A stretch of DNA of 64,000 bases from Blasia pusilla (lineage: Eukaryota). The translations under genes were made by a program, and so were the position numbers. The stretch is taken from assembly GCA_050084515.1 (NCBI GenBank), contig CM114271.1, positions 2,294,001-2,358,000 on the forward strand, written 5' to 3'. Positions 446 through 37,296 of the stretch are shown here, one piece after another (positions within the stretch are counted from its first letter, which is position 1; the number at the start of each line of letters is the position of its first letter). The notes below the pieces were generated by a model. That model searched no databases. It was not told the DNA's origin and saw nothing but the letters and a program-made list of their open reading frames with translations.

Positions 446-1135
446 TCAGGTGACGACCTCTGCCATTCTCTTCAAGTCGGCTTCACTCAACCTCTGATGC
501 ATCAATTGCGCATCACCGTTCGGTGGCGTCAGTAGTGGAACCTCATCTTGGTCATTCTTGCCGCTTGAATGATCATGGCCATTTTCAGTTTCAGAGCCAG
601 TGGGATCTTCAGCTGAAGGCGTGACTGTCGTCACCTGAAGACCCTCGGGCAGCAAACAATTGCAAAACCTACCTATCCTCGCAAGCCTGTTCACCCAGCC
701 AGGAATGTCCTTGCCAGTTAACCTACAGCATATATCATTCGAGAAGTGGTTGCAGTTCTTTGAAATCAGATGGTAAGTGTCTCCGTTATACTGGTCGGCG
801 CAGGCCTCCATGAACTTATGGCATTCCTCGTGTGTCATGTCCGTAGTCCCTAACAAGACGCTACTGCGAAAAGTAAATCCTGGACAATGGCGCGGATCGA
901 CTTCAAATACTCCGCTGGTAGGGAAGTCGTGCGCACCGAAAGCATACTCCACATCATGCACTTCAATTCCCGAGTGGAAAATCCCGAGCCCAAACCAATA
1001 GCAATAGTCATTCATCGGCGTCAGATCGTAGACATTGAGATAGATGGGCACGCGAGTTTTGCCACTGCTTGGGGAGGAGCCCGACGCCGGGACAACAGCA
1101 CTTCCTCGCATTCTCTCCAGTCGAGTGTTTGTCAT
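446..1135 (-). CDS. DeSI/PPPDE-family deSUMOylating isopeptidase-like protein, single coding exon
   Basis: 229-aa ORF with the PPPDE motifs IYLNVYDL, GIFHSGIEVH (catalytic His) and YHLISKNCNHFS (catalytic Cys), plus IPGWVNRLARIG. The true start may be the second Met (MRGS). Confidence 0.93.
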   Translation of the reverse strand: MTNTRLERMRGSAVVPASGSSPSSGKTRVPIYLNVYDLTPMNDYCYWFGLGIFHSGIEVHDVEYAFGAHDFPTSGVFEVDPRHCPGFTFRSSVLLGTTDMTHEECHKFMEACADQYNGDTYHLISKNCNHFSNDICCRLTGKDIPGWVNRLARIGRFCNCLLPEGLQVTTVTPSAEDPTGSETENGHDHSSGKNDQDEVPLLTPPNGDAQLMHQRLSEADLKRMAEVVT

Positions 1136-1454
1136 TACCGACCGTCGATTGCTGCGCGGACTCCGACCAACAACTCAACTCACGCTGCAACCGCACAATT
1201 CCAGTCATCCAGGTAGGGCTCACAGATTCACATCACACAATCAGTCAACCCAAGAAGCCTGTCTGATTCCATACTCGATTCCCACACCCTCATCGTTCAG
1301 GCCTCTCCACCGCCTCGACTATCGTTCCAACCCTCCTCACGTTACAGGAGACCAATTCAGCCCATCCAGGTGCGAGCACTCTAGGATTTTGCAGAGTCAA
1401 CCTACCCGAACAAGCTGTCCCTCTCCGATTACCCTCCCACTATCACCATCACAA

Positions 1455-2160: not shown

Positions 2161-3329
2161 GGGAGGGGGGACTTCCTCTGTTGAGTACGATGACGACTGG
2201 GCTCGCTGTCTCCAGCTGGGAAGGACACCGATGCAATCTGTGCTCTGGACTTATGCATCCTCTCGTCCCTCTGACCCCCGCCCGCGCGTGGTACGCATCC
2301 TCCTCTGGTTTGGCAGGGTTGACCTGGGATTAACTCGGGATGCCTGTCGCTTCACTTAACTTGGAAGACACGGTAATTGCGCAAGCACCGGCTAAACTAA
2401 CGAGTTTCCGCAGGTAACCGGTAAATTTTGACCGGTTTGGGGCCTCTCCGAAGAAGGGGAAGAAATTCACAAGTGTGCGGCCAAAAGTTATTAAGAAGGT
2501 GTAAGAGAGATAGGTGGAAAAAACACACCTTGAGATGATGTATTGTAAATCTAGAAGTAGAAAGGAAATGATTAAAGTGGTGTAGAGTAGTTAGTAGTAA
2601 GTGAGTTTGAAAAGGGATAAAACATCATGTGCACTTAGAAAGTTATGGATGGTATATTTCAGGTGATATTGGGGAAAATGTTGACATGGATGACCTACAA
2701 GTGAAGAGTGTTGTAATAGAAAATGACTTTGGAGTAACCTTAGTAGTCATTCTAGTTTGAAAGCAAAATGCTGAATGGAATTTTGTGGACAGCCTAAATG
2801 TTTGGAGTGTTGTGTAATGTATGAATATTACCTTAGATGGATATATTCATTGCAGGCATGGACAATGATACTGAAGTGAGTTTGAATGAACGTGACATGT
2901 GCTTGGGGCAGGGGTAAGTGCAAAATTTTTAGTGGAGTTATAATGGTGAGTAGATGAATGCTTTGAAGACTATTTGTGTTGTATGTGTGGCTGTCATAGG
3001 TTGCGGTGAAGAAGAAATAGATTTTTGGGTGGATTTTAAAAACAGATATCATGTTATTTTTGGAATACATAATGGAAGGAACAATAAAGCATGAAATAGT
3101 AAGTTGGTTTACATAGAACTGAAGTGAGTGAAAAGTAGGCAGATCAATAGATAAAGATGAAATAGGAGATATACATGCTTATAAAGTATAGAGTACTTGT
3201 AGAGGTCTGCTCATACATAGAAAGTACTCTAATAAATTATATTAGTCGTATACCAACACAAGAATAAAAGTTCTTACAAAGTTATAGTGGGATAGAAGTA
3301 TTGTCTATCGAAAAGCAATAGCATTGCTT

Positions 3330-3843
3330 TGTCACGTCTTTTAGGATAGATCGGTGAGATCTAATAGAACGCCTTCATGAGTAGTGGAGGACACGCCTAG
3401 TAGGTCAAGGGTGACCTGTTGAGGCCCTTGGAAACCTGAGATAGCAGGTTTCCCCTTCGTTTCGGCTCATTTGGAGCCATATTGAGGAACTTACTATTTT
3501 AGGTAAGTACCATTTTGAGTATATGATCGACTTACTATTTTTGGTAAGTGGCCCTTGACTTCCTACATCAGGTCAAGAGCCAAGGAGGTGACTTGGGAGC
3601 ATAGGTTACCATGGAGAGAGCTTGGGAGAAGGGAGGGGTATACCTCAAGGAGAGAGAGCTTGAGAGCTCATTCTCTCTTTGTTGAACCTCTTGGCATGAG
3701 GCGGCGGAGCTATGGTACCTTGCCTTGTGAGTGTAACCCAAGCCTCTCATTAGGAGAGTGGGTTTGGGTTGACATGAGAGAGAGTCCACACCTTTGAGAG
3801 CTATGGTGTGAGATGGTGGAGAGAGAGATTGGATCTTACTTTA
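3330..3843 (+). repeat. E1 repeat A1 (514 bp)
   Basis: Direct repeat of 11155-11668, about 15 substitutions by eye. TATA-like GTATAC at about 3638-3643. Confidence 0.95.
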
Positions 3844-3858
3844 CAAAGAGAGAATGAG
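3843..3858 (+). promoter_or_regulatory. E1 putative self-priming site at the PBS position
   Basis: ACAAAGAGAGAATGAG is the exact reverse complement of 3667-3682 (CTCATTCTCTCTTTGT) inside repeat A. No TGG-starting tRNA PBS is present. Confidence 0.7.
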
Positions 3859-5435
3859 AGAATGAGAGAGTGAGAGAGCTTCATGGGGGAGCTCGCTCGT
3901 CACTCGCTTTTTTTGCAGGTTGGGGACCGTGTTCCCCGTTCAGCGGCTCATGGGAGTGCTCACCGGAGCAAGGGCTGGTTTCATTATTCTTTGCATTTGC
4001 CGATTTTTCGTGTGGAAGAGTGGCGCGCGGAAGCGCTGCCCAATTTCTGATAGGGATTGAGTATGGGGACAGGTTGCCCCATGCTGGTGCTCTCGAGAGC
4101 ACCATGTAGCTTGCTGATTTGTATTTTTACAGATGTTACATTTTGTTGGGAGAAATCAGCGGAGCGCTGCGAATTTTTTGTGTAGGAGAAAGAGACATTG
4201 GGCTTTACGACAGTCCCGTCAGTTTTACTGAAATTTTTGATTCTAAATATTTTTGATGCTGGCAAGATCGTGAAATTTGTGCACGTTGTGCAAGAAAAAT
4301 AGTGCACAATTTGGAGTTGTCCATTGAGCAAAAAGTTATGGTCAATCTTGTAAAGCTGCCATTGCTAGGCGATTTTTAGGTTAAATCGTGCAAATCCTAA
4401 ATTCGCCACACTCCCAAATCGTCGCCATCATAGTCACCGTCAACGGTCGACGGTCAACCGTCACCGTCATCAGTCGGCCGTCACCATCAGCGGTCAACCG
4501 TCATTGTCAACGGTCAACCGTCCATTGTCCTCCCTTTGGGTGCCATTGCCGCCATTACGGAGTGGAGGGTCTTCCACGGCGTTCGTTGATTCCTTGACTT
4601 GCGTTGCCACCACGTACTTTGTTTTGGCCGCCACCGTCATCGCATTTCTTCATCAACCAATGAAGGAGATGACCTCCGGTTATGGTGTTTGAGTTTTGAT
4701 TTCATGCTGCTATGTTGTGATTGGTAGCCGCTCGGCGGACGATCGAGTATCGTGCCGTGACGCCGTGAGCCGTAAGCCGCAACGCCGCGCCGATTGCCCA
4801 CCGCCCGTGCCGCTCGTGGCCGCACCGCACCGTCTCAATCGCGGAGCCGCACCGTCATTGTGGAGCAGAGTGTGGGATTATTATTGATTGAGGAGGGTAT
4901 GCCGCCGAGTGCCGCATCCCACCATCGAGGGCCGTGCCGTTCGTAGCCGTTCCGTGCCGCCTGCAACGCCGCACCGTTCCGCTGGGACCGCATTATCTAT
5001 CGAGGAGTTTTGAGCAGCATCAGTATGGGAGGAGTATGACTTGCTGATTGGAGGAGTTGTCTCCACGATCGAGTTGGGGTCGAGATTCGCAGTTGTTGAG
5101 GAGCGACATCGACATGTGTTCAGGTTACCCATTCTGGTCCTTTACCCTGCACGTGTGAGGGATTCTGGGATTTATTTGGGGATATTGGGTGTGTGGATGC
5201 TGAGAGCATCATTTATATATGTGGTTTAGGGGACATAGACCTGTGTGGGATGTCCGGAGTGAAGGGTAGGTTGTCGATGAGATGATAGCCTGGTCGATTT
5301 GCCGCACCACGCCGCGTGTTGCCGCACGTTACACGTCTCGGGGAGAGAGAGTGTAGATCGAGTGCCGCATGTTTGGGATGAGTGATTGAGGGATTCCTCA
5401 CGAGGTTCAGAGTGATCAGGTGAGAGGGGCACGAG

Positions 5436-6153
5436 GGTCATCACGGAGTCCGTTCGGGACTTTGAGAGGCGAGGTGGTGAACCCGAGAGTAGCTCTAGAG
5501 GTTTTACGCGGAGTGGCGCGAGGTTCCGAGGGTCTCCACGTGAGGGACCACCTCGACCTCCTTCTGTGTCATCGTCAGACGAGGGGGAGGTTGTAGAGGA
5601 GTTTGTGAGCACATCGCCACACGTTGTGAGTGGTCCTACCAGTTGGGCATACGAGATGGACGACCGGGGTAGAGGACATCGTAGGTTTACAGGTGCAGTA
5701 GGCACGATTGAGTTGCACGATTTTATAGCAGAGTTTAGGAGTTGGTGCGACTCCCAACGTGCCAGGAACTCTAGAGAGTTCAACCCATTTACAGCATGGA
5801 ACGGTATGTTCCAACATTTAGAGGGGGCGCCCATGGACGATTACCATGAGTTCTCTCGGAGAAATGCATGTGAGATCGAGGCGTGGAGGCTCTACTATGA
5901 CCCACATTATGTGTCATGGACGGAGCCGTTCCCAGATGAGGAGGAGGAGTCAGGAGAGGCTACTGCCTCTTCTACTAGTGACGTTTTAGGAGGAGTCACT
6001 CGCACGGGAGCAATTGCACCGTCTAGTCGGGTTCGTCCCAGGTTCAACCCTGTGGTTGAGTTCTTTGCTGAGTTGAGGGCGAGCTACCAGGGGGTACGGA
6101 CGGAGAAGTTGTGGAGCATCCACGACTTCCAGAGGCGCCCGGGTGAGAGTGCC
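5436..6153 (+). pseudogene. E1 gag-like region, C-terminally deleted
   Basis: RRFTGAVGTIELHDFIAEFRSWCD...LEGAPMDDYHEF aligns with the E2 gag fragments RRYSGAVGTIELEDFM and LEGPPMDDYHEF. Assigned as gag from its position upstream of pol. Confidence 0.7.
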
Positions 6154-6439
6154 ATCACTTGGCCTAGTGATTTGATTGAGGGACATGTCCATGCAGAGGA
6201 TACTCCCGTTCCTGACATTTCTATGGAGAGGAGTGTTATGGTAGCTGCATCATTCCGTGGAGGAGAGGTGTGTGGGGCTCGGACCGAGGAGCTTCAACGA
6301 TTCCCCGATGAGCACGCAGGCACCATGGCATGGAGCGCGGCGTTTGCACAGGCGTGATGGGTCTGAGGAACCCGAGGTAGCAGGGAGTGCTACGATGACA
6401 CCCTTGGATACCACACCCATTGTGTGGTGTACCCTGGAG

Positions 6440-7360
6440 GAGGGTATTCGAGTGTTAGATCTCTTTGGAGGGATTAGCACCGGGTTAGGTGCTGTTTTGC
6501 AGGCATGAGTGAAGAAATCTGGCCAGCACTGTATGTGGAGAGTGATGATGTTGCAGGGCGCGTCTCACTACGACATGTGGCGCAATTACGCCCACGTTTT
6601 CCCGACTTATTATGCGTCCGCGTCTGAGGATACCGAGTTCCCTACCGAGGATATTTTTTGTTGGGGCGCAGGACTTAGAGCGGTAGGGACCATTGATTTG
6701 GTCATTTCCGGTTGGCCATGTTAGGGCCAATCGAGTCGGACGAGGCAAAGCGGCGGGTTGGCGACACTCGGTCCAGGTTGTTTTGGGAGATGTTGAGGGT
6801 CTTACGGCAGTTGCAAGAGCACCAGTCTCGTTCTCTAGCCTTCATTCTCGAGAATGTGCCGATCTTAGGAGACTCCAAGTCACGGGTCGTGACGAGTGCT
6901 CATCAGGTGCGTGCCTGGATCGGCCCAGCAGTGTTCTTGGATGCGGCGAGGGTAGGTTCTAGAGCCCATCGCCCGCGTCTATGGTGGACAAACTTGGTGC
7001 CCCATGCGTTGTTATGGAGGGCGTATGCGAGAGTGGAGCGCCCCTCCCCTTTGTTAGTGGATTCCATTCTGGATCCAGGTCGTCGATCACAGGCAGTGAG
7101 GCACGATGATCGACCACCGCTGATTGTGGTCAACAGGGTAGGCAGGTCGCGGGCAGCCTTGCCCACGTTTGTGAGTTTTCCCGCTTCCTATGCATACAAG
7201 GAGGCCGGTCCTGGCTTGGTTTGGGATGACCAGGTTCAGCGGTTGGTGGAGCCCAACGCCGACGAGAGAGAGCGAGCGATGGGATTTCCCACAGGAGTGA
7301 CGGCAGTACCATCAGTGTAAGAGGCATCACGACGCCATGTCTTGGGTCAGGCGATGGACT
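6440..7360 (+). pseudogene. E1 DNMT3-like C5 cytosine DNA methyltransferase domain (frameshifted)
   Basis: Motif I VLDLFGGISTG, motif IV DLVISGWPC (next codon TAG where E2 has Gln), motif VI FILENV, motif VIII AHRPRLWWTN, motifs IX/X ERERAMGFP...VLGQAMD. Confidence 0.9.
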
Positions 7361-7849
7361 GGCGCTTGACATGGATCCTCGGCTTGGGAGTGGTGAGCAA
7401 CGCGTCATATGAGATCGCGACATATCACAACGGTTGCGTTGGTGAGCCCCATGCCTACCGAGACGGTGGAGGCAGTGGCTGGGGGCGAGACCCGAGGAGA
7501 TCTACGCACCAGGGGAGATCGGGAGAGACACCCTTGGACTTCTTGGGATGTTTTGAAGGTACGCAAGGAGATGATAGCCACAGCATCGAGCGTGGTTTCG
7601 GGCACTGCACGTGGAGGAGATCAGAGTTTGCAGTTGGCTGCAGGAGAGCGGCCGAGTGTTGTTGTTCAAGAGGGGTTGCACCATAGCAACCACCGATACC
7701 GCGCCGGAGAGTCCCTCGTAGTCACGATGGAGACTTGGGAGCCGATATGGGCCCTAAGTTGACAGGGGAGGAGAGCGGCGCCGAATACATCGTTCCTCGA
7801 AGTTATAGGAGCGCTGCGTTTAGCATGGAGGATTTGGGTACGTTGAAGG

Positions 7850-9160
7850 GACCGGGGATCCGCATTGAGTTGTCGAGTGATATGCCGATCTTCCGACGAC
7901 CCTACAGGTCTGATGATATGGAGAGGGCTCTGATTCAGAGTAGGAGCCAGGACTTGGTCGGAGCAGGACTAGTGGAGATGTCGCATGGGGAGTATGCATC
8001 TGCCACTATCATGCCCGCCAAGAAGGATGTGCATGGCAACTGGACGGATAGGCGGATGTGTGGGGATTACCGACCTATCAATCGGCAAACGAAGTCCGAT
8101 AGGTATGCCATGCCCACCCCTGAGGAGATCTTTGATGCGATTGGTAACGCAAAGGTCTTGATTCATTGATTTCGAGCCGGATACCATCACCGCCTATCGA
8201 TTGGAGGACAGGCAGAAGACGGCATTTTGGGGCATCGATCCTCACGGGAAGGATTGTTTGTACCAGTGGTGGTTCTTACCATTTGGGTTAAAGAACGCCA
8301 CGGCTGAGTTTCAGAGGGTCATGGATAGGATCTTGGCTGGTCTGGATTTTGCTAGGTGTTATATTGATGACATTGTAGTCTTTAGCGCCACGGTTGAGGA
8401 GCATGAGCAACATCTAGAGGAGGTGTTTTGACGATTGCAATTACATGGGCTGAAGCTACATCCAGGCAAGTGCAAGTTCTTCTATGACCAGATTGAGTAC
8501 TTGGGTCATACGATATACCCAAGGGGGCCTTGGTGTTCAGAGCGAAGGAAGAGGCTATCTCACGCATTCCACGCCCTACAGATGTGAGCCGTGTTCGCGC
8601 ATTCATGGGATTGGCGAACTTCTATCGGCGATACGTCAAGGGATTCAGTTCGATTGCGAAGCCGCTGACCTTGCTGACCAAGGTGGATCACGAGTGGCAC
8701 TGGGGGAATGAGCAGGAGCGAGCATTTCGATTGCTCAGGGGATAGGTTGGCGTCCGCACCCATCTTGAGGAGACCGATCAGGGGGCGTCCTTTCCAGTTG
8801 CACACATATAGGAGCATGTTGGGGCTTGGAGCGGTGCTCACCCACCATGATGATGAGGGTAGAGAGTTCGTGGTGGCTTCCGCTAGCCGCTCGAACAACG
8901 CTGCAGAGGCGAAGTACAACTTGTATGAGGGTGAGTGCTTGGCTGCGGTGTGGGTTGTCGCGCATTTCAGGTGTTACTTATTCGGAAACCCCTTTACCAT
9001 CATCACTGATCATCAACCACTGAAGTGGTTGATGGAGTCCGACAAGCTTACAGGGAAGCTTGCGAGATGGGCTCTGTTGTTGCAGGAGTATGATTTTCAG
9101 GTGGTACATAGACCTGGGACGCTCAACCAGGATGCAGATGGGTTGAGTCGTAACCCATGC
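7850..9160 (+). pseudogene. E1 reverse transcriptase and RNase H (Ty3/Gypsy type, frameshifted)
   Basis: RMCGDYRPIN, KTAFW, LPFGLKNA, CYIDDIVV, FMGLANFYRRYV; RNaseH GLGAVL, YEGECLA, IITDHQPLKWL, LARWALLLQEYDF, NQDADGLSR. Confidence 0.95.
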
Positions 9161-9529
9161 CTGAGTCAGCGAGATGCGACTGGAGCTCGATGGCATGGAG
9201 AGAGTGATGAGTAGTCGGTGCCAGGATAGCACGCGTCAGCCTATTTAGGCATGTTGGCTATGGAGAGCCAGAGTGTGGAGACTTCGATGGCGAGGTCTAG
9301 TGGAGAGTCCTTGGATCCCGAGGCCAGTGAGGACACGACAAGTGGCCGACATATTCATGATGATGGAGTATTCTTAGAGTACCTTCGTACTGGCAGCCTT
9401 GCAAGCACCATGGATACTAGAGAGCGGGATCGGATCCTACAGCGGGCCAGACGGTTCCGTTGGGAGGGGACACATATTTTGAGGGTTTGGGAGGATGGCA
9501 GAGTACGCTTAGTGCCGCATCCTTCACAG

Positions 9530-10600
9530 AGAGCACGACTAGTGCAGCATGCCCACAAGGAGTTGGGTCACTTTGGGGTGAAGCGGACGTATAGCTTGCT
9601 CCACATTCAGTATTGGTGGCGAGGCATGCAGAATGACGTTCAGCAATTTGTTGCCAGGTGCATGGTGTGTGATCGGGTCCGAGCATCGTTCAATGCTCCG
9701 ACTCCACAGTTGCATCCATTACCGATCATGGGCTTAGGGTATAGATGGATTTTGGATTTTGCAGGACCTTTGCCCTTGACGGAGCGTCACAGTCGTTATG
9801 TGTTGGTGATGGTCGAGCACTTCTCAAAGTGGATCGAGTTGGTTGCATTGCGACAAAGCGAGTGAGGGAGTAGCTTATGCCTTCCTTGACAGAGTCTTTG
9901 AGTCATTATGGCGCACCGGCGGAGTGTGTTGAGACCAGGGTACCGAAGTTTCGCGGTGAGTTCCAGGCCTTGTGTGATCGGGGGGCGATTCGACCACCGC
10001 CACGACGCGAGATCATCCTGAGGCGGATGGATTAGCGGAGATAGTTGTGCAGACGGTGAAGAGGGTTTACGCAAGTATGGCTTGCGAGAGAGGTCACCTA
10101 GGAGATTGGGACTTCAGTTGCCATGGTTGGCGATGGGATCTGATTCAGCGAGCACGCATCCTTAGCGTCTTTTTCACCGTATTTGCTACTTTATGGCGAG
10201 CCGATTTACTGCGGCCATTCGTCGAGATCTTTGGTGAGGTTTGAACCTTGATGACCAGATGTATGGGTGCGAGCATGTTCTCGAGGGCTGAGTTATTTCG
10301 AGAGTGATGCCCATGGCGTTCGAGAACTTGGCGATTGCACAAAGATCGGATACGTTGAGATATGCGACTATTCGTGGTGGTGGTTATCGACCAACTATCC
10401 GGAGGTTTCATCAAGGAGATTATGTCTACTTGCGCAGACGGCACCAACGGCGTTGGATGTGATCGCAGGCGCACTATCCGAGAGTGCGTGACATTTTGCC
10501 ATCGGGTGTTCTCTTCTTGTTGGAGGGACGCGATGGTATGGTATGGAAGGACCATGTGCGTAATTGTGCGCCATGTCACCTTCCTAACATTGATGGTACT
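9530..10600 (+). pseudogene. E1 DDE integrase (frameshifted)
   Basis: HHCC zinc finger (HAHKELGHFG...CMVCDR), core WILDFAGPLP and YVLVMVEHFSKW. The downstream core is broken by indels but is collinear with the E2 integrase. Confidence 0.9.
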
Positions 10601-10641
10601 GAAGAGATCCGAGCTTAGCGATAGTTCATGCGGGCTTGCGT

Positions 10642-10782
10642 TGTATGTTGTGTAGTTACGCCGTGTAGTGCGCCACGATGCTAGTCTATGATGGGTGTTC
10701 GAGAGGATGGCATATGGCATGTTTGACGCCACCTCTCACTAGGGTTCCTCAGGGACAATGGATGTGTCCCAGATGTACATAG
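10642..10782 (+). pseudogene. E1 PHD finger at the integrase C-terminus
   Basis: CMLC...MLVYDGCSRGWHMACLTPPLTRVPQGQWMCPRCT-stop; C4HC3 pattern with one Cys mutated to Tyr. Confidence 0.88.
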
Positions 10783-10993
10783 AGAAGGTAGTTCTACATT
10801 CCGACTTGTATCTGTGACATGGATGACAAGGAGGCGACTAACGATGGGGCCACATGAGCATCCGGTTTTCTTGCTCTTAGCGTCGAATCGAAAAAAAAGA
10901 AAGCAAATAATTCTATTATTATTAATAGAATTTTCTGCTTTCTTTTTTTACGATGTATGTCATGGTAGGTAGGGATAGATGGCTATCTGGAGT

Positions 10994-11024
10994 TAGAGGG
11001 ACCTAACCACCAGCTAGGGGGGCG
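10994..11024 (+). promoter_or_regulatory. E1 conserved polypurine-tract-like element immediately before B1
   Basis: TAGAGGGACCTAACCACCAGCTAGGGGGGCG, 29/31 identical to the E2 motif at 28477-28507 (-). Confidence 0.65.
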
Positions 11025-11796
11025 ATTGGAGATATTTTGGTACTTCTTGTCTCGTTGTTTGGATGCCATGAGTTAGCATGGGATCATGCGTGTTTGTGTG
11101 TGTGTTCGGTGACAGCGATGTATGTTGTGTAGCGATGTGTATGCGCACGACAGCTGTCACGTCTTTTAGGATAGATCGGTGAGATCTAATAGAGCACCTT
11201 CATGAGTAGTGGAGGACACGCCCAGTAGGTCGAGGGTGACCTGCTGAGGCCCTTAGAAACCTGAGATAGCAGGTTTCCCCTTCGTTACGGCTCATTTGGA
11301 GCCATATTGAGGAACTTACTATTTTAGGTAAGTACCATTTTGAGTATATGATCGACTTACTATTTTTGGTAAGTGGCCCTTGACCTCCTACATCAGGTGA
11401 AGAGCCAAGGAGGTGACTTGGGAGAATAGGTTACCATGAAGAGAGCTTGGGAGAAGGGAGGGGTATACCTCAAGGAGAGAGAGCTTGAGAGCTCATTCTC
11501 TCTTTGTTGAACCTCTTGGCATGAGGAGGCGGAGCTATGGTACCTTGCCTTGTGAGTGTAACCCAAGCCTCTCATTAGGAGAGTGGGTTTGGTTTGACAT
11601 GAGAGAGAGTGCACACCTTTGAGAGCTATGGTGTGAGATGGAGGAGAGAGAGATTGGATCTTACTTTAATTGGAGATATTTTGGTACTTCTTGTCTCATT
11701 GTTTGGATGCCATGAGTTAGCATGGGATCATGCGTGTTTGTGTGTGTGTTCGGTGACAGCGATGTATGTTGTGTAGCAATGTGTATGCGCACGACA
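11025..11796 (+). repeat. E1 right-end repeat block B1-GC-A2-B2
   Basis: B1 11025-11152 and B2 11669-11796 are both 128 bp with 2 differences seen. Junction CACGACA-GC-TGTCACG at 11146-11161. A2 is 11155-11668. Confidence 0.95.
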
Positions 11797-13944
11797 GCTT
11801 ACATAAAAATGCAACTCCCCTATGGTGTACTCTATGGAAACGTCTACTCTAAAGTGTAAATCTAGAGCAAGGATGATATCTTTGTTGCCTTCCGCTGTAA
11901 GTCTAGTTTACTTTGCACTAAGTCTCTTGCATCTTCCAAGAATTCATTGAAGTACTAATTTGCCTCTACAATATTGTGCTTGTATTGTGCACTCTAAAGT
12001 GTAGATTCTTTGGATTCATCTGCAAGTATCAAAATTTTGCTCTTGAGTACATCCACATCTTATCTTAGATGTGCATTCTGATCTTGCAAATAGTCGATTC
12101 TTCTCAAGAGTCGTTGGTAAACCTACAGTGTGATGTTGGAAGCTGGAGTATGCTCTGAAGTAGATGGTGCAACAGGAGGTGGATGTAGAGGTTGAATTGC
12201 TGAAGTTGTCCTCTCGTTGTATGGCGGGTGATGTGTCGAGAGCCTTATCCGAACCTGGGAGTAGAAAGAAATTGAAGTGAGTCAAATCTGAAATTGAAGT
12301 GAGGTAAAGCAGGAATAATGAAATGGAAGAATGTAGACAAATAATTACATTGATATTGGAAACAAAAAATTATAAATAGAGTACATTGTGTGGGAAGTAA
12401 AATGTCTTGAAGAACATATCTTATTGCATGGAAGAAAATGGAACTATACATATGTTTGGATAGGTAAATGTAAGAAACAGTAGACAAGAAATGATCCATC
12501 AGACTTGAAAGTAGAAAATGTCATTGAGTGATGAAACAGAGGCAAAATTACAAATATAAGTAGGCATTGTATGCTTGAGTAGAAGTGTCCAATTGAGGTA
12601 GTGTTTCCAAAGAACAAGCAATTTATATGTTCAACTACATAAGTTGCTTAAGAAAATTTTGGAAATGTTGAAACTATTGATAGAGAGTGAAGAACACATG
12701 TTGCAAGTATTCTTATGGGCACACATTCAAAATCACAGTAAAGTTGGAAAATTGTTCATTGGTTGTACCACCTAAGAAAGTAAGCAAGGTATGTAGTTAG
12801 TTGGAGCAATGAATAACAAAGCTTGGAAACAAGAAGTGAATGAAATGCATACATTGCAAGATACAAGAAAGTAACTTACCAAAGTGATAAACTATGCGCA
12901 CTTTCTCTTCCCTAGAGAGCTTGCACTTGCGCTAGGTTGGAAAGTGTAGAGGTCAATAATGATATCAGGTAATGTGACCTCACTTTTGACATCTTGAAAG
13001 TCTGGGAGAATGGGAACTATGTGTGGCTCATCAGTCTGCTAGGCATTGAACTCACGGAACTCTCCATTTGAACAAGTTAACTTCATCTTGGAGATGAGAT
13101 GGCTTCCTTTGGTGCTAGTCAAGTCAATCAGCATAGAAATGGGCAAGTGAAATCCATGATGAAGCGTGTGTAATTGATCAAGTTTAATGCCAACGGAGGC
13201 TATATTGAACAGTCTATTCCCCTAAGAGCATGTTAGGGATGTTTCTTTGGCAAGTGTATCAAATGCCATTGGATAATATATGTGATGATAAAGGAAAAAA
13301 AAAGGACAATACATTCCCTTAAATTTTGGCCTATGGATTGCTCAAGTAATCTAAATAATTTTATGAAAAATTAAAGTTCTACTCTTTTTATCTATGACAT
13401 ATGTATTGCATATACAATCCAGTTCTATAAAGTTTTATTGGAACAATGGATGGTCTCCTTCCTTCATTTATTACCTATGCAATACACATAAAATCTAAGT
13501 AGTTCTAAGAAAAAGTAGACCATCTATTCTATTCCTTTGGGATTTACATATTGCATGCGCAATTTATGATCAATCTTACCAATAATTATGTGTCAAGTAG
13601 ATGATCAACTTCAAAGGAAATTATGTATGGCAGATTGAGAATTCCACTTCTCTTTAAAATTATTGTGTCTTTTGTTTAAAAAAGATGTATCATATGATTT
13701 GGTGCAAACATATGGTTTAAATTGTTCATGTAATATTTGAGAAAAATTTACCTTATGAAAAAATAACCACAGACCATCCGAGAGTATATGGAGAAAAAAA
13801 TTGATGACCAAAATTGAATGGGAAATATTTTTTAAGTTATTTTTTACAAAAAAATTAAAAATAGATGATGGTGAAAATGACATATAATACCTTAAAAAAT
13901 TCGATTAGATAGATCGATTGACTAATGGATAGGGCCATGCTAGT

Positions 13945-14115: not shown

Positions 14116-14555
14116 AACCAAACCTACTCTCCTAATGAGAGGCTTGGATTACTCACAAGGTAAGGAGGACCATAAATCCACTGCCTCATACCAAAAGGTT
14201 CAACAAAGAGAGAATGAACTCCAAAGCTCTTTCTCCTTGGGTATACTCCCTTCTCTCTCCTAAGCTTTTTCCATGGTAACCTATGTTTGCATGTCACCTC
14301 CTTAGCTCTTGACCTATGGTAGGAGTCAAGAGAAAACTCCTAGAGTGAAAAGTCAAGTATGCTTATATTGACAATTTACTTGAAATAGTAAGTTTCTATA
14401 TATAGCTATAAATGAGCCCAAAAAAATGGAAAATCTGCTCTCTCTCAAGTTACCCGAGACCGTAATAAGTCATCCTCGACCTCCTCAGGCTATCTTCCAA
14501 TATCCTAGAAGGCACTATACGATAAACTCGTCAATCTATCCTAAAAGATGTGACA
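13945..14555 (-). mobile_element. Degenerate solo A+B unit related to E1
   Basis: Reverse-complement similarity to E1 B then A (e.g. actctcctaatgagaggcttgg, ggttcaacaaagagagaatga, ctatcctaaaagatgtgaca). Flanks are TAGT and TAGC (3/4 TSD). Confidence 0.85.
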
Positions 14556-25473: not shown

Positions 25474-27895
25474 ATATTGTAACATTCTGTTTTCTTCTTC
25501 TTTGTAACAAACTTACGTCTGGGATTTCTTGGTTCGACAGCCTTGAAAGGGGCTTTATAGAGAACTTGTGCAATAGAATTTTGACCAGGAGCGAGCTCTG
25601 TTACTACTGGGATAGCTGATTGAAACAGTGCGCTCTGTGTGCCTCACGAACATTAGCTGTAGTGTTGGTAGATCCATATTGTTCAGTTTCTTGTAGCCCC
25701 AATGCCATATTTCGAAAGTCATGCTTGCTTAATTGTCAACGACCTCAGTGAAGGGCAGGATGGTGGCTATCTCCTGTATTAAATTTGTGTAACACAGCTG
25801 ATGGTTGGCCAAGGTGGCTTGAAAACAACCCATATGGTTTTCAATGCATGAAAAATCTCTTCAGAAGGTCGGCCAAAATTCCAAAAAGGACTTAGACTCG
25901 TCTAGGTCCTAGTTAAAGTTAAAGTTTCATTTCGAAGGCTCATTGAGTGCACTAATGGGGCAGATTGTGATATTAGCAAGAGGGGATATCATCTTGATTT
26001 GTCATAAGTTTAGGATTATCGTCTCCAAAGAATTTGGTTAAAATGCCCCTTCAGGAAAGCTAGTCCTTTGCTTCGTGATGGTAACTTAGTAAAGTTCACC
26101 TCTCTACTCCAAGTCGAGTGTTGTGTAACACTCGTAGTTGATTCCTTCGATATGAAGGAGCCTGAAAAACCATTTTTTAGACTTTTGGAAAACCATAATT
26201 TGCCTTTCCGTGGAGTTTTCCATCACAATAATGGATGTTAATACTCTAAAATGTCAATTGTTTTCTTCATTCAAATTTAATTGTATAGAATGGGAAAACA
26301 AATGAATAATGCTTTCTTTCAGGAAATTTTCCCATCTTCTAGACTACTTTTAGTACTTCATACGTGTAATCTTCAATGGCATTTGCCATCCAGATGTTTG
26401 TAGTAGACTATAGAAGTTTACTTCTTTTCCCTTCATAGAAAAATATTTTGAAGATAGGGAAAAAGTAATATATTCCCTATAACTTGTCTTGTCTTTTCTT
26501 TTCTTCAGCCAAATGGAATGAGGTTGAGGGAAAGTGAATGAATGAAGGTTTCCCCCCCCTTAATAATTCGATGAAACTTTTTCCCACATGGAACTTTTCT
26601 ACATTATTACTTGACTAGTAAATTTTTGGAAAAATGGAGAAAGATATAATATTGGGATTCAGCTGGAATAGGAGGATAAACTAAATCTTGGAATATTTTA
26701 GAAAATCTACATTAGGGCTCTTACAAGTTCACCATTTTTCTCTTCTTTCCATGTAGCCTTTCTGCGCCCCCTACAAAGAAGTTAGATATTTATTTTCGTC
26801 CTAACCCTCTCGGAGGGCTGCACATTGGATTGAGAATAAGGAGACTGGAAGATAAAATTTTCTCCTAATGAATGATTGGATTTGGGATGTTACATATTCC
26901 CATTCAACACGATTTCATTTCATCAATGATCTTGTAACACATGTCACCAAACAAAAACACTATATTGGTAGTAGTTTTGCCAAATTTGAATGCCTCCAAA
27001 GGGCCCATTTAATAACCATTTTTCAAATCCAAGTTTTTCATATGCTTTTATGGGTACTTAAAGTCCAGCACCTAAAACGATGCTTGCATTCCTAACGGTC
27101 CCAACTGTCCAATGGACCTCGTGCGAATCCCAAACCGAGATCCAACTAAATGAGTCGCAGGTTGGAATCCAATACGGACCTCCAAAATCCGCTCTATTGG
27201 ACTTGATTCGGATTTCGAATCCCAACGCTAAAATCCCGATGAATTTTGTACCCTTGGATCGTCCCGCGGCGCCCCAAAGTGAAGTTCGAGTCCCAAGCAC
27301 TCTTGGAGACCTTCCCTCTTATTAATATGTCTGGGGTTCTTCGTCCTCCCACCATCTTTGGGCCACTCTTTTTGGTCCTCAACCTAAATCTCCATACAGT
27401 CATTTCTAAGAACTTTCTCAACCTATGCTTATGTGTTTGCTAACATCTTAATGCGTTGGAACTAGATTCACATAAGCTTTCCAACGCCATCTTATTTGTC
27501 CCAAACACATCTTGGGACCAAAAGTTATGATCCAAAATACAGTCAAAACCCCAAACGCTAGTCACGTTCCAAATTTGGTTCTCACCTCTTTAGCAACCAC
27601 TCTTCCTAGACTCGACTCCTCTCAAGTCTTGGTTTACGTTTGGTTCAGGTTTCCTAGTTGCGACCATAAATGCATAAAACGCTAAACCTTGCTCGCTTCT
27701 CATCTCTTGTGTCTCTTGCGTCTCTTCTAAGAGATCACTCCAACGCGCAAATCATCCTAGCGTGAGCCTGCTAGAATTCTGATGTTCTGCTTGGTGCTCG
27801 TTTGGTTATGAGGGTCGCGACACCCAAGTTCCGCATCTTATCTCGATGGAAGTAAAGACACTAGAGGAAATCTTGGTTTTTATGCCTCTAATAAA

Positions 27896-28476
27896 TGTCG
27901 TGCGAATCCACATCGTCATACAACATACATTGCTGACATACCATACTCACATACATACATAACATAGACGAGAGCATCCACAAACACAAGTGTACCACAA
28001 CTGAAATCCGTGAAAGACCCACTGCCATAAAACACGTATAGAATCACATACAATCGAGCCAAACCCACTCCACGATGGGAGAATCTAGGTCGAAGCTTGG
28101 AAACACCATAGCCAAGAGCTCTACTCACTACCAAGGCTAACTCCCAAGCAATGAGGCTCAACTCAAAGAACTCGATTTGTTCTTTGAGTGCACTCCACCT
28201 ATATCCTCCAACCTAAGAGCGGGCCCTCTTTGGAAAAGTCACCTCAACCGAGTAACCTCCAACCCTATGTATGAAATCGCATCTCTACCTAGACACTGCG
28301 GCCCTACATAAGGTATGGCCTCTACTAGCACACTATACTCTACGACATAATCCGTATGGTCATGACAGCTGTCGTGCGAATCCACATCGTCATATAACAT
28401 ACATCGCTGACATACCATACTCACATACATACATAACATAGACGAGAGCATCCACAAACACAAGTGTACCACAACT
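27896..28476 (-). repeat. E2 terminal repeat block B1-GC-A2-B2
   Basis: 27896-28002 repeats at 28370-28476 (107 bp). 28003-28367 repeats at 37297-37660. Junction GACA-GC-TGTC at 28364-28373. Confidence 0.95.
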
Positions 28477-28648
28477 CGCCCCCCTAACTGGCGGTTAGGT
28501 CCCTCTAGCTTCCAGGTATCCCTATACATCTACTACATGCTATACACCTTCTTGGGTGCACGAATCAAAAGGCCGGGTGCTAGGTTGCCCCATCGTTAGT
28601 CGCACATCTATAATCCATATCATGCAAAGATCAAGTCATCTACCCCTC

Positions 28649-28789: not shown

Positions 28790-28829
28790 CCTCAAGCTAG
28801 CACGTATCATGGCTAAGCTTGGGTCAACA

Positions 28830-29900
28830 GTACCATCCACATTTGGAAGATGGCGCACAATTACGCACATGGTCCTTCCAAACAACTCCATCACGACCCT
28901 CCAACATGAGAACTCCAGAAGCTAACACCTCGCGCACTCGTAAAATAGTGCGCCCTGCTGTCACATCCAACGTTTTCGGTGCAATCTGCTGCAAAAAGAC
29001 ATATTCCCCCACATGGAACCTACGAATCGATGGTCGATAACCTCCACCCCGAATAGTTGCATACCACAACGTATCCCTGTGTTGAGCAATGGCAAGATTC
29101 TCAAAGGCTGTTGGCATAACTCTCCGAAAGAGCTCTGCCCGCTGAGAACACACTCTCATCCACATCTCTGGGTCATCAAGGTTCACCACCTCACTAGACC
29201 CCCGACGAATTGCTGTTGGCAAGTATGGATCTCGACCGTATAACAGAAAATAAGATGAGAAGGAAGCCAAGGATGCTTGGCGACTGAACCTATACCCCAT
29301 GGCTAACCATGGCAACTGAATATCCCAGTCTCCAAGATGCCCCTTTTGTAGGCCATACTTACGCAATGCCCTCTTCACCGTCTGAACCACACGCTCAGCC
29401 AAACCATCCGCCTCTGGATGATCTCAAGACGTGGTCCGATGATCAATCAACGCCTTGTCACACAAGACCTGAAACTCACCCTAAAACTATGTACCCTGGT
29501 CGGTCAGTACTTCAACCGATGCACCAAAATGACTAGCACTCTATCAAGAAACGCATACGCCGTTCCCTCACTTGCCTTGTCCGGTAATGCCACCAACTCA
29601 ATCCACTTGGAGAAGTGCTCCACCATCACCAACACATATCGATGATATCGTACAGTCAACGGTAACGGTCCCGCAAAGTCCACACTCCAACGGTAATCCA
29701 ACCCCATAATAGGCAAGGGGTGTAATTGTGGTGTAGGGGCATTGAATGATGCCCTCACCCGGTCACAAACCATACAACATGACACCAACTGCTGCACCTG
29801 AGTATGCATGCAACGCCACCAATGCTGACCAAGGAGTAAGCTATATGTACGCTTTACCCCAAAATGTCTCAACTCCTCATGGGCATGTCGCACAATGCGC
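28830..29900 (-). pseudogene. E2 DDE integrase
   Basis: HAHEELRHFG...CMVCDR, WSVDFAGPLP, YVLVMVEHFSKWIELVAL, TDQG, AERVVQTVKRAL, YFLLYGRDP. Confidence 0.92.
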
Positions 29901-30289
29901 TCTCTCTGAGCCAAATGCGGCACTACTCGTACTCTACCATCCTCCCACACACGGAGAATATGTGTTCCCTCCAATCGATACCTCTTAGCACGTTGAAGAA
30001 CACGGTCTCGCTCCTTGGCACTCACTATGCCTGGCACCCTACTGGTCCGTAGGAACTCCAACACCAACGCATCATCATGAATATCACGCTGATCCGTACC
30101 ACAATCTCCAACCTTAGGATCCGAAGGCTAGCCATCTACCCTCTGACTAGAGTAAGATATCATGTGGTCCTCCATACTAGAGTCCATCCCTAACCAACAT
30201 AAAAAGGCGAATGCATGCCAACCTGGCACCATCTCCTCATCATCCTCGCCATGCCATCTAGCCCAAGTTGTATCCTCTTGGCTAGTACA

Positions 30290-31520
30290 TGGGTTCCTAC
30301 TCAACCCATCAGCATCAAGGTTGGCAACTCCAGGTCTATGTACCACCTAGAAGTCATACTCCTGTAAGATAAGCGGCTGGTGATCAGTAACAAGGGTAAA
30401 CTGTGTGCCAAACAAGTAACACCTAAAGTGTGCCACAGCCCACACTACTGCCAAGCACTCTCCCTCATATGAACTATAGCGACTCCGCTGCATTATTCGA
30501 ACGACTTGCATAGGCCACCACAAACTCCATGTGCTCATCATCATGTTGTGTCAACACCGCTCCAAGTCCCAACCTACTCCAATCAGTGTGTAACTGAAAT
30601 GGGCGCCCTTTGATAGGTCTCCTCAAGATAGGCGCCGCCACCGACTGGGCCTTAAGCTCTACAAAAGCTCTCTCCTGATCATCTCCCCAATGCCACTCTT
30701 GATCTGATTTCAGCAATTGGTTCAAAGGCTTTGCTATAGCACTAAATCCCTTCACATACCTCCGATAGTAGTTCGCCAATCCCATGAATGCCCGAACTTT
30801 ACTCACATCTACCGGACGCGAAATAAGTGCAATAGCCTTCACCTTTGCTTGCTGAACTCCCAAACCACCTGGATAGATCACATGACCCAAGTACTCAACA
30901 TCCTCATGGAAGAACTTACACTTTCTAGGATGCAAACGTAGACCATGAGCTTTCAACCGCTCAAACACCATGTGCAAATGTATCTGATGCTCCTCCACCG
31001 TGTTACTGAACACCAAGATATCATCAATGTAACACCGAACAAAATCCAACCCTGCTAGGATCCTGTCCATCACTCTCTGAAACTCGGCATGTGCATTCTT
31101 CAATCCAAAGGGTAAGAATTTCCACTGGTACAAACAATCCTTGCCATGAGAGTTGACACCCCAAAATGCTATCTTGGCCTTGTCACTCTCCCGAATCGGC
31201 AATTGATGGTATCCTGCCCGAAGATCCAAAGTACTGAAAATATTTGCCTGTCCCACTACATCAAAGATCTCTTCAGGTGTAGGCATGGCATACCTATCGA
31301 CCTTGGTTTGCCAATTGATAGGACGATAATCTCCACACATCCGCCTATCCGTGTAGTTGCCATGCATATCCTTTTTAGCAGCATGCATGGGGTGGCGATG
31401 CATACTTTCCATGCGACAACTCCACTAATCCAGCCTCCAAAAGGTCCAACGTCCTACTCTGAATCAGGTCCCTCTCCATATCACTATATCGGTAGGGACG
31501 ACGGAAGATTGGCGTATCAC
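30290..31520 (-). pseudogene. E2 reverse transcriptase and RNase H
   Basis: ORF 30474-31412: RMCGDYRPIN, FSTLDLRAGYHQL, LPFGLKNA, CYIDDILV, LHTDWSRLGLGAVL; then YEGECLAVVWAV, TDHQPL, DADGLSR. Confidence 0.95.
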
Positions 31521-31974
31521 TAGCCAAATCAATCCGTATACCGGGTCCAACCAGAGAACCCAACTCCTTCATGCTAAAGGCAAAACAACTCCTATAAGCA
31601 CGTAGGAACTGTGTCAAGCGTCGTTTCTCACCTCCCGTAAGCTTGGGCCTAATTAATGGCTCCCAAGTCTCCTCCACTGGCACTTTGCCATTGGCTGCTA
31701 CGCAACCCCCTCACAAGATGGTACACCCTTAGCTACACCATCAGCTGAGCAAATAACTCCTCCACCAGCATGAGCAACCAACTCCACATGCCCAGCCATT
31801 ACATCCCATTTACTCCAAGGATGCAAAATACTACTCTCCTCGCCCCCAACCGATGCCTCTATCGTCCCGGTAGCCATCGAGCTTATTACAAGGGGTGGAA
31901 GACCCACAGACATAGTCCGAAGTCGACGCTGCTCGGCCATACCAAGACTCAAAATCCAAGTCAAACAATTCAGG

Positions 31975-32890
31975 TCCATGGCCTGACCCAACACATGACG
32001 TCGTGAAGCCTCGAAATGGAAGCAACATTTGTCACACCGAGAGCAAATCCCATCGACGCTCGCTCATCAGCGTTAGGCTCACCAACTGTCGCACATGAGA
32101 ATCCCATACAAGCCCGTGACCACCTTCCCTGTATGCATGTGACGAGGGAAAACTCACAAATGTGGGTAGTGCCATCCTAGGCTGGCCCACACGATTCACC
32201 ACTGCCATGGGTGACCGATCAATAACCCTCACTACCTGAGAAAGTCGCCCAGTATCCAAGATACTATCCACTGTAAGGCAAGGATCCCGCTGCACTGCAT
32301 CATATGATCGACGTAGAACCTCCCTAGGCAACAAGTTTGTCCACCACAAGAGTGGACGATGTGCACGCGAGCCAACTCGGGCTGCATCCAACAACACCGT
32401 TGGTCCAATCCAAGACCGCACCTCATGAACACTCGCCATCATCCGGGTCCGAGTGTCATCCAACAATGGAACATTCTCCAAAATGTAAGCTAGAGCACGT
32501 GCCTGATGAACCTGAAGATGTCGTAACACCCGTAACATCTCCCAAAACAATCGAGACCGAGGGTCGTGTAATCCCTCACCACGACCAACACGTGTATGAC
32601 CCTGACATGGCCATCCAGCAATCACCAAATCCACAGGACCAACCCTCTCAAGGTCCTGCGCCCCCAAGAATGCAATGTGTGATGGCAAAGCACGATGGTA
32701 CCCACGAATAGCTGATGGCGGCAACAACTCAAGATATCTCAGCATCAACTGACCAATATGTCGGGATGAGACTCTGTGGGCCGTCTCATCTTGCTCCACA
32801 TACACGTATCTCCAAGACAGAATACCGGCTTGCAACATCGACCAAACCAGGTGCTAATCCCACCAAAGAGATCTAACACACAGATGCCCT
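31975..32890 (-). pseudogene. E2 DNMT3-like C5 cytosine DNA methyltransferase domain
   Basis: VLDLFGGIST (I), YVYVEQD (II), DLVIAGWPCQG (IV, catalytic PC), YILENV (VI), LLDAARVGSRAHRPLLWWTNLLP (VIII), VLGQAMD (X). Most of it lies in the 268-aa ORF 32032-32838. Confidence 0.92.
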
Positions 32891-33179
32891 CGGCGGATCG
32901 CCATACAATGGGTGTAGTATCCAAAGGGGATAACCTAATGGACAGAAGTAGGAGTCCGTGGGGCCTCCTCTTCCTCGTGAGGTATAATGACCTCACACCA
33001 AGCCTCCTACACTAGGCGTCGCCTCTGCCGTAGTGCACCGCTTGAACTCCAAAGTGGCACATCCAACGATGAGGATGCCACTGCTGCAAAAATAGGGACC
33101 TCCTCTACCTCCTCATGCACAGGAGAATCCATAGCAAAAACATTACCCTCCAAAAATCTCCTGGCCAAGTGACTACTCC

Positions 33180-33737
33180 ACTAAAACCAACCACAGATGC
33201 TAACACTGTTGGGGAAGACCCTCCTGGTCGAGCCCCATAAATAAATCTCACAGGAACTTGGCTCATACGTCCATCCCCGGACTGCCAACCAGGTCTATAA
33301 GACGCTGTCTCACCCAAGTAATCCATCATCGAAAACCCATCGGGTACAAATCTCGCTCCTCCAACTAGTACATCATACGACTCGGCTGATGTGACTACCG
33401 CAGATACTCCCAACCGGGAGCTATCAATCGCATGATCTGGTCTCAATTGTACAGAAAACTTCTCCCGTTTCATGAATTGAGACCTATCATTGGCTCCTCC
33501 AAGTGATGTTTGAATCTGGAATGGGCAACGCTCGAGCTCTGACCTCCGAATACCCAAACCACTACATGCCGCCTTTCCCAACATCAAAGGTTGGGCAGCA
33601 GAGTCTAACAAGACTCTATCTGGTCTATACACCTGTCCTGTAGGACTCACCAATCGGAATATCCCACTCCGATTGTCCAACATACATACACCAGGTGTAA
33701 GCCTCTCACGATCAATGGTGGCCGGGTGGTAATGCAT
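33180..33737 (-). pseudogene. E2 aspartic protease-like domain
   Basis: RVLLDSAAQPLML (DSG-like active site) and YDVLVGG (C-terminal ILG-like motif), located between gag and the MTase. Confidence 0.75.
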
Positions 33738-37284: not shown

Positions 37285-37296
37285 AGTTCTTTGAGT
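37285..37296 (-). promoter_or_regulatory. E2 putative self-priming site at the PBS position
   Basis: Element-sense ACTCAAAGAACT directly after A1 is complementary to AGTTCTTTGAGT in repeat A (28161-28172 in A2, 12/12; 37456-37465 in A1, 10 bp). Confidence 0.65.

Follow-up and report, generated by a model that had tools for sequence, protein, structure and literature searches.

A predicted DNMT3-like methyltransferase domain, decayed in place, within Ty3/Gypsy-type retrotransposons of Blasia pusilla

Retrotransposons that encode an enzyme of the class used by their hosts for silencing are rare, and the purpose of such enzymes is unsettled. What a domain of this kind does in a mobile element, and how it came to be there, are questions raised by positions 6449-7359 (+) of a 64,000-nt window from contig CM114271.1 of Blasia pusilla. 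The window is eukaryotic, and all coordinates given here are positions within it. It includes two GC-rich blocks with retrotransposons, termed E1 on the plus strand and E2 on the minus strand, and each of these elements carries a methyltransferase domain. Our analysis makes it very probable that the segment at 6449-7359 is a decayed DNMT3-like C5-methyltransferase domain, that this domain has long been a selected component of a streptophyte Ty3/Gypsy-type lineage, and that its likely role is methylation of the element's own DNA.

The first question is whether the damaged E1 sequence truly represents a methyltransferase. The domain, which extends from motif I to motif X, was delimited by frameshift-aware alignment and by blastp with an X-masked reading, and the motifs were placed by three-frame translation together with a frameshift-aware protein-to-DNA alignment to Marchantia polymorpha protein P0003. 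In order along the plus strand, these are RVLDLFGGISTG (6449-6484), VISGWPC (6701-6721) with a stop directly after it, RSRLFWEM (6769-6792), AFILENVP (6838-6861), GSRAHRPRLWWTNL (6955-6996), ALPTFVSFP (7156-7182), ERERAMGF (7264-7287), and the motif-X-like RRHVLGQAMD (7330-7359). The five motifs that a sequence-only reading had named upstream of the reverse transcriptase (RT) are therefore all present, at 6449-7287. Motifs I, IV (PCQ), VI (ENV), VIII, IX, and X occur unpermuted and in canonical order in both E1 and E2. Because the X-masked E1 reading matches a Calypogeia fissa protein with 60% identity over 379 residues (blastp, E 2.8e-137), and because E1 and E2 share 65% amino-acid identity over 297 aligned codons of the domain, the occurrence of these motifs in E1 is not due to chance.

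The E1 copy has nonetheless lost any function of its own. A TAG stop codon occupies 6722-6724 (+), immediately after the catalytic Pro-Cys, where E2 carries CAG at 32604-32602 (-), and so the codon change reported in the sequence-only reading has been located in both elements. Frameshift-aware alignment revealed an additional in-frame TAA stop (7318-7320), which separates motif IX from motif X, as well as four frameshifts near 6506, 6604, 6684, and 6761; a further frameshift near 7402 falls beyond the interval 6440-7360. The E1 copy is dead, since its domain is interrupted by four frameshifts and two stops and the element has no protease. The largest unbroken E1 piece reaches 18.9 bits with Pfam model PF00145, which is under the cut-off of 22, compared to 35.9 bits for the open reading frame of E2.

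To which class of methyltransferase does the domain belong? When the E2 piece was compared with solved structures, DNMT3B, DNMT3C, and DNMT3A ranked first (E 5e-8 to 3e-5). A profile of 25 relatives likewise placed 29 DNMT3A/B/C sequences first (E 5.5e-22 to 1.1e-17), followed by DRM (1.6e-13 to 2.7e-11), M.HaeIII (2.5e-8), and DNMT2 (2e-6), and this profile found no DNMT1 among the solved structures at E <= 1e-3. An AlphaFold2 model of the E2 piece (predicted local distance difference test score, pLDDT, 82; predicted template modelling score, pTM, 0.76) was used as a Foldseek query, and all 34 of the matches listed are DNMT3A/B/C (E 3e-8 to 7e-7, TM 0.37-0.57). Conservation among the 25 relatives is complete or reaches at least 90% at the catalytic Cys and the Gln of PCQ, at the Glu-Asn of ENV, and at the His-Arg of motif VIII, and the glycines of motif I vary hardly or not at all. 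The catalytic domains of animal DNMT3A, DNMT3B, and DNMT3C thus resemble the element-borne domain in providing the best profile and fold matches, in motif order, and in a SAAHRARYFWGNL-type motif VIII. They differ from it in that identity is only about 18-27% and in that the E1/E2 domain lacks PWWP and ADD reader domains and is encoded in a mobile element. Pfam scans of window pieces and of the proteins P0001, P0003, P0005, P0055, and P0440 detected neither of these readers. Assignment of the domain as a predicted DNMT3-like cytosine-C5 DNA methyltransferase is well supported by these matches but not proven.

A further question is whether the domain is an integral part of the elements. The E2 methyltransferase domain (31974-32882, -) includes a 273-aa open piece (32032-32853) and has about four frameshift events and no stop. 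By homology, E2 is collinear with residues 1-1258 of P0003, which comprise gag, CCHC, protease, and methyltransferase. E1 retains an N-terminal gag remnant (5671-6150, +), identified as a tblastn match to P0003 residues 9-170, and tblastn found no counterpart in E1 for residues 170-781, which span the C-terminal part of gag, the CCHC region, and the protease. Therefore the protease is kept in E2 and absent from E1, where the methyltransferase directly follows the gag stump with the linker retained. One open frame of 313 codons spans the junction left by this loss of roughly 1.8 kb (5671-6357), a loss that may be private to the copy or may mark a non-autonomous subfamily. Pfam yielded no match on the E1 gag piece or on the E2 protease piece (33105-33755, -), and those domains are named by homology to P0003 alone; the E2 protease reads DSA, compared to DSG in the Marchantia protease. 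In both elements the methyltransferase is collinear with gag and RT, has no introns, lies upstream of RT, and is preceded by the same linker of about 60 residues that follows the protease in P0003.

The position of the domain relative to the reading frames is also shared with its relatives. In E2, the gag-protease-methyltransferase frame is closed by a TAG codon at 31698-31700 (-), about 90 codons past motif X, and the frame for RT, shifted by -1, starts at 31710 with a 13-base overlap. The ends of P0001 and P0003 fall at the corresponding point, and P0440 ends soon after the methyltransferase domain. Because the frame ends in this manner in E2, P0001, P0003, and P0440, which are broken or predicted sequences, the methyltransferase seems to form the tail of a gag-protease-methyltransferase frame, with RT, RNase H, and integrase encoded in another frame. 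Production of the methyltransferase may therefore be coupled to that of gag and protease and not to that of RT and integrase.

Relatives of the domain are numerous: a threshold of E <= 1e-3 yields 1977 cluster representatives, and one of E <= 1e-10 yields 486. The best match to the E2 methyltransferase is an unnamed protein with 78% identity, and the close named relatives are from Marchantia polymorpha (59-73% identity), M. paleacea, Riccia sorocarpa, Calypogeia fissa, and several Sphagnum species. The nearest of all are retrotransposon polyproteins of Marchantia, Calypogeia, and Sphagnum. More distant named relatives occur in Klebsormidium nitens (KFL_013780020, 36% identity, with CCHC, protease, and methyltransferase), Closterium, and Mesostigma. 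K. nitens protein P0055, with 36% identity to the E2 domain (E 3e-36), has the order CCHC-protease-methyltransferase, Closterium P0064 has CCHC and then the methyltransferase, and M. polymorpha P0005 has the methyltransferase, RT, and RNase H. Named proteins ranked above E 1e-27 are all from plants or green algae, and all of those scanned or mapped are retrotransposon-borne.

Trees of the methyltransferase were built without an outgroup, using FastTree for 147 rows and a quick IQ-TREE run for 60 rows. For the FastTree set, 170 near-full domains were thinned to 145 through removal of unnamed rows that had 72% or more identity to one retained, and the 60 rows were hand-picked to cover all clades. 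In both trees, a bryophyte clade that includes E1 and E2 has a support of 100. Within this clade E1 lies at the base, followed by Calypogeia and then by a group of E2, Sphagnum, and Marchantia (support 96-97). The grouping of the moss Sphagnum with Marchantia and E2, to the exclusion of the liverwort Calypogeia, conflicts with the species tree and suggests either ancient parallel lineages or a moss-liverwort transfer. Proteins with the architecture RT-RNase H-methyltransferase-integrase-PHD form a clade of their own, with 91 of the 147 rows (support 96) and 16 of the 60 rows (support 94). This second, larger clade includes P0030, P0049, P0051, P0057, and P0111, in which the methyltransferase is flanked by RNase H and integrase and a PHD finger is often present at the C terminus; P0111 is the 'pol' protein of the green alga Scenedesmus.

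These data bear on the possibility that E1 and E2 each recently captured a DNMT3 gene from the host, which we regard as extremely improbable. Nothing in its favour was found. Independent captures would have to account for a polyprotein position and flanking linkers that are shared by both elements, and for a single clade that unites them with retrotransposon-borne relatives from four bryophyte genera, while sister clades hold Klebsormidium and Closterium proteins. Moreover, no host-type protein is present among the named matches to the domain, and solved host-type DNMT3 enzymes reach only E 5e-8. The sequence-only reading had proposed that the methyltransferase is ancestral rather than recently captured. 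The shared polyprotein place and linker, the same domain order in algal relatives, and the fully supported clade agree with this proposal, and the domain is supported as an ancestral component of the element lineage.

Has the domain been maintained by selection? Codon pairs of E1 and E2 were taken from frameshift-aware alignments with stops excluded, and those of RT and integrase from direct E2-to-E1 alignments. The ratio omega of nonsynonymous (dN) to synonymous (dS) substitution was estimated by NG86 and LWL85, and these were relied on together with the raw proportions (pN and pS). For the methyltransferase, NG86 gives a dN of 0.29, a dS of about 1.95, and an omega of 0.15 over 297 codons (bootstrap 0.08-0.23). 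The corresponding values are a dN of 0.18, a dS of 1.42, and an omega of 0.12 for 310 codons of RT-RNase H (bootstrap 0.07-0.19); 0.19, 3.04, and 0.06 for 206 codons of the N part of integrase (0.04-0.15); and 0.17, 1.70, and 0.10 for 186 codons of its C part (0.04-0.16). RT and integrase combined have an omega of about 0.10. LWL85 yields 0.19 for the methyltransferase and 0.13 for RT plus integrase. As dS is saturated, the absolute omega values are rough and the raw contrast is safer, with pN/pS at 0.35 for the methyltransferase (pN 0.24, pS 0.69) versus 0.23 for RT plus integrase. The lower constraint on the methyltransferase is significant, as none of 1000 permutations reached the observed gap. 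Within the domain, the half from motif I to PCQ has an omega of 0.22 and the remainder 0.12.

The A repeat pairs of the elements (described below) differ by only 2.9% in E1 and 5.4% in E2, and therefore decay after insertion accounts for a small part of the nucleotide difference of about 36% between the E1 and E2 methyltransferases. The clear result is that the domain is far from neutral and has been under purifying selection. This is in accord with the earlier suggestion that it was kept under selection since the two families split (omega 0.15, pN/pS 0.35), and the codon comparison with RT that had been proposed as a check gave 0.15 versus about 0.10, with nothing near 1. The same reading had held that the coding parts of E1 and E2 are more alike than their non-coding parts, which is largely correct. 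In blastn comparisons (word size 7, E <= 1e-3), coding regions align at 67-71%, and a short stretch around motif I at 80%, with neither the A repeats nor the 5' leaders of E1 and E2 giving a match. However, the B repeats and the stretch preceding them align at 70-78%.

The selection data also speak to the idea of a neutral passenger, a domain that stays open solely on account of the RT downstream of it. A frame shared with downstream genes does select against stops and frameshifts. Nevertheless, replacement changes are strongly under-represented (pN 0.24 versus pS 0.69), with 45% E1-E2 identity at third codon positions against 74% at first and second positions. In addition, RT apparently lies in a different frame after a stop, which weakens the shared-frame argument. 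We therefore consider a passenger role to be very improbable.

Since both copies in the window are damaged, the state of other family members becomes relevant. Reads and contigs were placed on 6245-7420 at no less than 90% likeness, and the RNA runs carry the same species label. DNA contigs of two runs contributed 2251 and 13178 pieces, which indicates a high-copy family. Raw RNA reads from two runs number 297 and 243, with a depth of approximately 20-60 over most of the domain. Nearly all of them have the first mate on the minus strand, which in a conventional stranded library would make the family RNA sense. A likeness of 99% or more to E1 is seen for only 11 and 2 RNA reads, and most (227 of 297 and 210 of 243) are 90-95% alike, indicating that the RNA derives mainly from sister copies. 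The differences of RNA reads from E1 in this region are C>T plus G>A at 42 of 93 places (run X22) and 48 of 97 (run X23), compared to only 14 and 13 places for T>C plus A>G.

The breaks of E1 can be compared with the sister copies. At the TAG codon (6722-6724), the other letter is present in 1780 of 2559 (run X1) and 679 of 1561 (run X2) of the DNA depth and, among RNA reads whose first mate is on the minus strand, in 10 of 19 and 7 of 12, and so this stop is neither universal nor clearly private to the E1 copy. At the TAA codon (7318-7320), 32 of 33 and 40 of 40 RNA reads of sister copies differ. For this second stop and for the frameshifts at 6506, 6684, and 6761, most or nearly all RNA reads and most of the X1 DNA depth differ from E1. 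In the X2 DNA, the second stop shows no other letter (0 of 216), and a length change at 6681 occurs in only 405 of 40411 of the depth. Sister-copy reads exhibit length differences at or near 6647-6666, 6681, and 6762 and a one-letter difference at 6506. Sister copies are numerous and transcribed, and most are without the E1 breaks.

What kind of element carries the domain? Both E1 and E2 encode RT, RNase H, and an integrase with an H2C2 zinc finger and a DDE core (Pfam RVT_1, RT_RNaseH, Integrase_H2C2, and rve). In E1, RT and RNase H (7729-9214, +) are broken in several places and were traced by tblastn and alignments, with a Pfam RT_RNaseH match of 3.9e-33 on 8678-9214; the integrase (9230-10600, +) has an Integrase_H2C2 match of 2.5e-17, and its C-terminal part is heavily frameshifted. 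The corresponding E2 region (28824-31672, -) matches RVT_1 (7.2e-30), Integrase_H2C2 (6.2e-12), and rve (9.7e-5). On the basis of this gene content, the elements are classified as decayed Ty3/Gypsy-type retrotransposons rather than DIRS, despite their DIRS-like repeats. A DIRS identity was considered and is ruled out by the H2C2 and rve integrase and by the 4-bp duplications described next.

The complete E1 copy (3330-11796, +) has TGT...ACA ends and an A1-internal-B1-A2-B2 layout, as established from its repeat pairs and by direct reading of its ends and flanks. Its repeats A1 (3330-3843) and A2 (11155-11668) are 97.1% identical over 514 bases, and B1 (11025-11155) and B2 (11669-11799) are 98.5% identical (self-blastn, +). 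A target-site duplication, GCTT, flanks the element at 3326-3329 and 11797-11800 (+, read directly). E2, which represents a second family, occupies 37660-27896 (-) and has the same A-internal-B-A-B layout, with A repeats at 37660-37296 and 28367-28002 (94.6% identity), B repeats at 28476-28370 and 28002-27896 (98.1% identity), and the target duplication TTTA. Both elements start with TGTCA and end with GACA. They are true insertions, given the 4-bp target duplications and the DDE-type integrase. The combination of split, DIRS-like repeats with features of DDE integration (TGT...ACA ends and 4-bp duplications) is seen at 3326-3843 and 10995-11800 in E1 and at 27892-28506 and 37296-37664 in E2. 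The inner B1/A2 joint reads ACA-GC-TGT in both elements and resembles joined element ends plus two extra bases. A G-rich stretch resembling a purine tract lies directly before B1 and is conserved between E1 and E2.

A comparable system has been described in the alga K. nitens. KnitGypsy-Dnmt3 is an intronless, divergent Dnmt3 in a Gypsy element with DIRS-like repeats and a Ka/Ks below 0.2 (de Mendoza et al. 2018, PMC5890265). E1 and E2 share with it the intronless DNMT3-like domain in a Gypsy-type element, the A-coding-B-A-B repeats, and the low Ka/Ks. The order CCHC, protease, methyltransferase is common to K. nitens P0055, a protein not confirmed as one of the published elements. Differences include the host, which is a charophyte alga rather than a land plant with relatives of the element in liverworts and Sphagnum, and an identity of only about 36% with placement in a separate clade. 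In addition, the elements of the window show target duplications, TGT...ACA ends, and a first frame that closes directly behind the methyltransferase, none of which were found in the consulted passages of the KnitGypsy-Dnmt3 description. Overall, E1 and E2 exhibit the features of this kind: an intronless methyltransferase, the Ty3/Gypsy gene set (CCHC and protease in E2 only), split repeats, an omega below 0.2, and kinship with K. nitens. By these sequence features, they are classed as bryophyte-type members of the already published streptophyte Gypsy-DNMT3 kind (de Mendoza 2018).

Several other systems invite comparison. Polyprotein-like 'genes' of Marchantia polymorpha (P0001-P0005), Calypogeia fissa, and Sphagnum have the same element type and domain order, with 59-78% identity to the E2 methyltransferase and 54-61% to that of E1. 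They carry only generic database names, and no literature description of them as methyltransferase-carrying retrotransposons was found. More broadly, our literature search found no description of methyltransferase-carrying Gypsy elements in liverworts or mosses, although supplements may list some. Gypsy-DNMT3 'in streptophytes' is mentioned only in passing in two later reports (PMC12344493; bioRxiv 10.64898/2026.05.21.726589). SymbioDIRS-Dnmt3 of Symbiodinium is similar in having a DNMT3-type domain in a retrotransposon polyprotein and split repeats. It is unlike E1 and E2 in being a DIRS element with a tyrosine recombinase, whereas these have an H2C2 and DDE integrase and target duplications. 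The green-algal RT-RNase H-methyltransferase-integrase-PHD elements, such as that of Scenedesmus sp. ('pol', P0111), carry a related methyltransferase (33-41% identity), which is located after RNase H rather than before RT and forms its own clade.

If the domain is a selected enzyme, on which DNA does it act? The protease would release a stand-alone catalytic domain of about 330-400 residues that has no PWWP or ADD. Presumably, this released domain would use S-adenosylmethionine for de novo cytosine methylation, and the most probable target would be the element's own newly made DNA copy or a fresh insertion. Acting in trans, an active domain might instead modify host DNA or competing elements and could, for instance, reshape methylation near insertion sites. 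The retained catalytic motifs and the selection on the protein fit this alternative, yet neither says which DNA is the target. Because the domain seems to reside in the gag-protease frame, it would appear to be made in larger amounts than RT and integrase, which also suits action in trans. However, there is no sequence pointer to a host target, and Pfam detected no PWWP, ADD, chromo, or PHD readers in P0001, P0003, P0005, P0055, or P0440. Action in trans is therefore judged unlikely.

It could also be proposed that the fold has been kept for another job, such as DNA or RNA binding for targeting or packaging, or RNA methylation, without methylation of DNA. In yeast, no DNA methylation by the K. 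nitens domain was seen (PMC5890265), and the methyltransferase changes about 1.5 times faster than RT plus integrase at replacement sites. Nonetheless, a human DNMT3B control likewise failed in that yeast assay (PMC5890265). Furthermore, the 25 relatives show little or no variation at the catalytic Cys, the glutamate of ENV, and the glycines of motif I, residues that a binding module would not need. This alternative seems more doubtful still than action in trans.

Methylation of the element's own DNA by a DNMT3-like domain is the reading that we favour, and several points weigh against it. The DNMT3 assignment comes from best matches at about 18-27% identity and not from a tree of all DNMT classes. 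Synonymous change between E1 and E2 is saturated (pS 0.69 in the methyltransferase and 0.64-0.74 among the regions), and the maximum likelihood estimate for the methyltransferase is unstable (omega 0.04 with a dS of 5.5). Both copies in the window are broken, and nothing works in place. E2 also has Leu at the nearly invariant Arg of motif VIII (HRPLLWW, 32332-32373, -). The highest share of sampled words in any sequencing run is 0.34, and the runs are not shown to hold the exact E1 locus. The negative yeast result for the K. nitens domain, which its authors called inconclusive (PMC5890265), likewise counts here, and no Gypsy-borne DNMT3 is known to have activity. In the same paper, the Symbiodinium DIRS-borne DNMT3 did carry out de novo CG methylation in yeast (PMC5890265). 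Finally, the choice between the element's own DNA copy and host DNA as the target is purely what we infer. The ratio of observed to expected CpG is 0.90 in E1, 0.67 in E2, and 0.45-0.65 in the AT-rich flanks, which provides no clear signal of methylation-driven decay.

A broader interpretation can be offered tentatively. Bryophyte-grade land plants may still hold transcribed and selected Gypsy elements that make their own DNMT3-like methyltransferase as a tail of gag-protease. These would belong to a lineage, characterized by split repeats, that is shared with Klebsormidium and Closterium, with a related methyltransferase in Mesostigma, the capture would predate land plants, and the element enzymes might contribute to de novo methylation in bryophytes. 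If so, de novo methylation in these plants would be fed by element-borne enzymes and not by host DNMT3 alone. Because the Klebsormidium-type element has relatives in land plants, its methyltransferase was selected across a deep family split, and sister copies are transcribed, bryophytes offer a workable test ground for transposon-borne DNMT3, and genetic tools exist for Marchantia.

Other features of the window are minor. An inverted fragment at 14169-14325 resembles a portion of the A repeat of E1 (3561-3716 and 11385-11541) at 78-80% and is probably a remnant of a related element. An intact open frame of 242 codons at 446-1174 (-) corresponds to a host gene for a DeSI/PPPDE-type peptidase, adjoining a GA-rich simple-sequence region at about 1500-2300; its best matches are from many land plants at 53-76% identity, with none close. 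Long open frames at 57413-58242 (-) are built of a repeated unit (...CDGHFLPKLLMHF...) and likely represent a tandem repeat rather than a gene.

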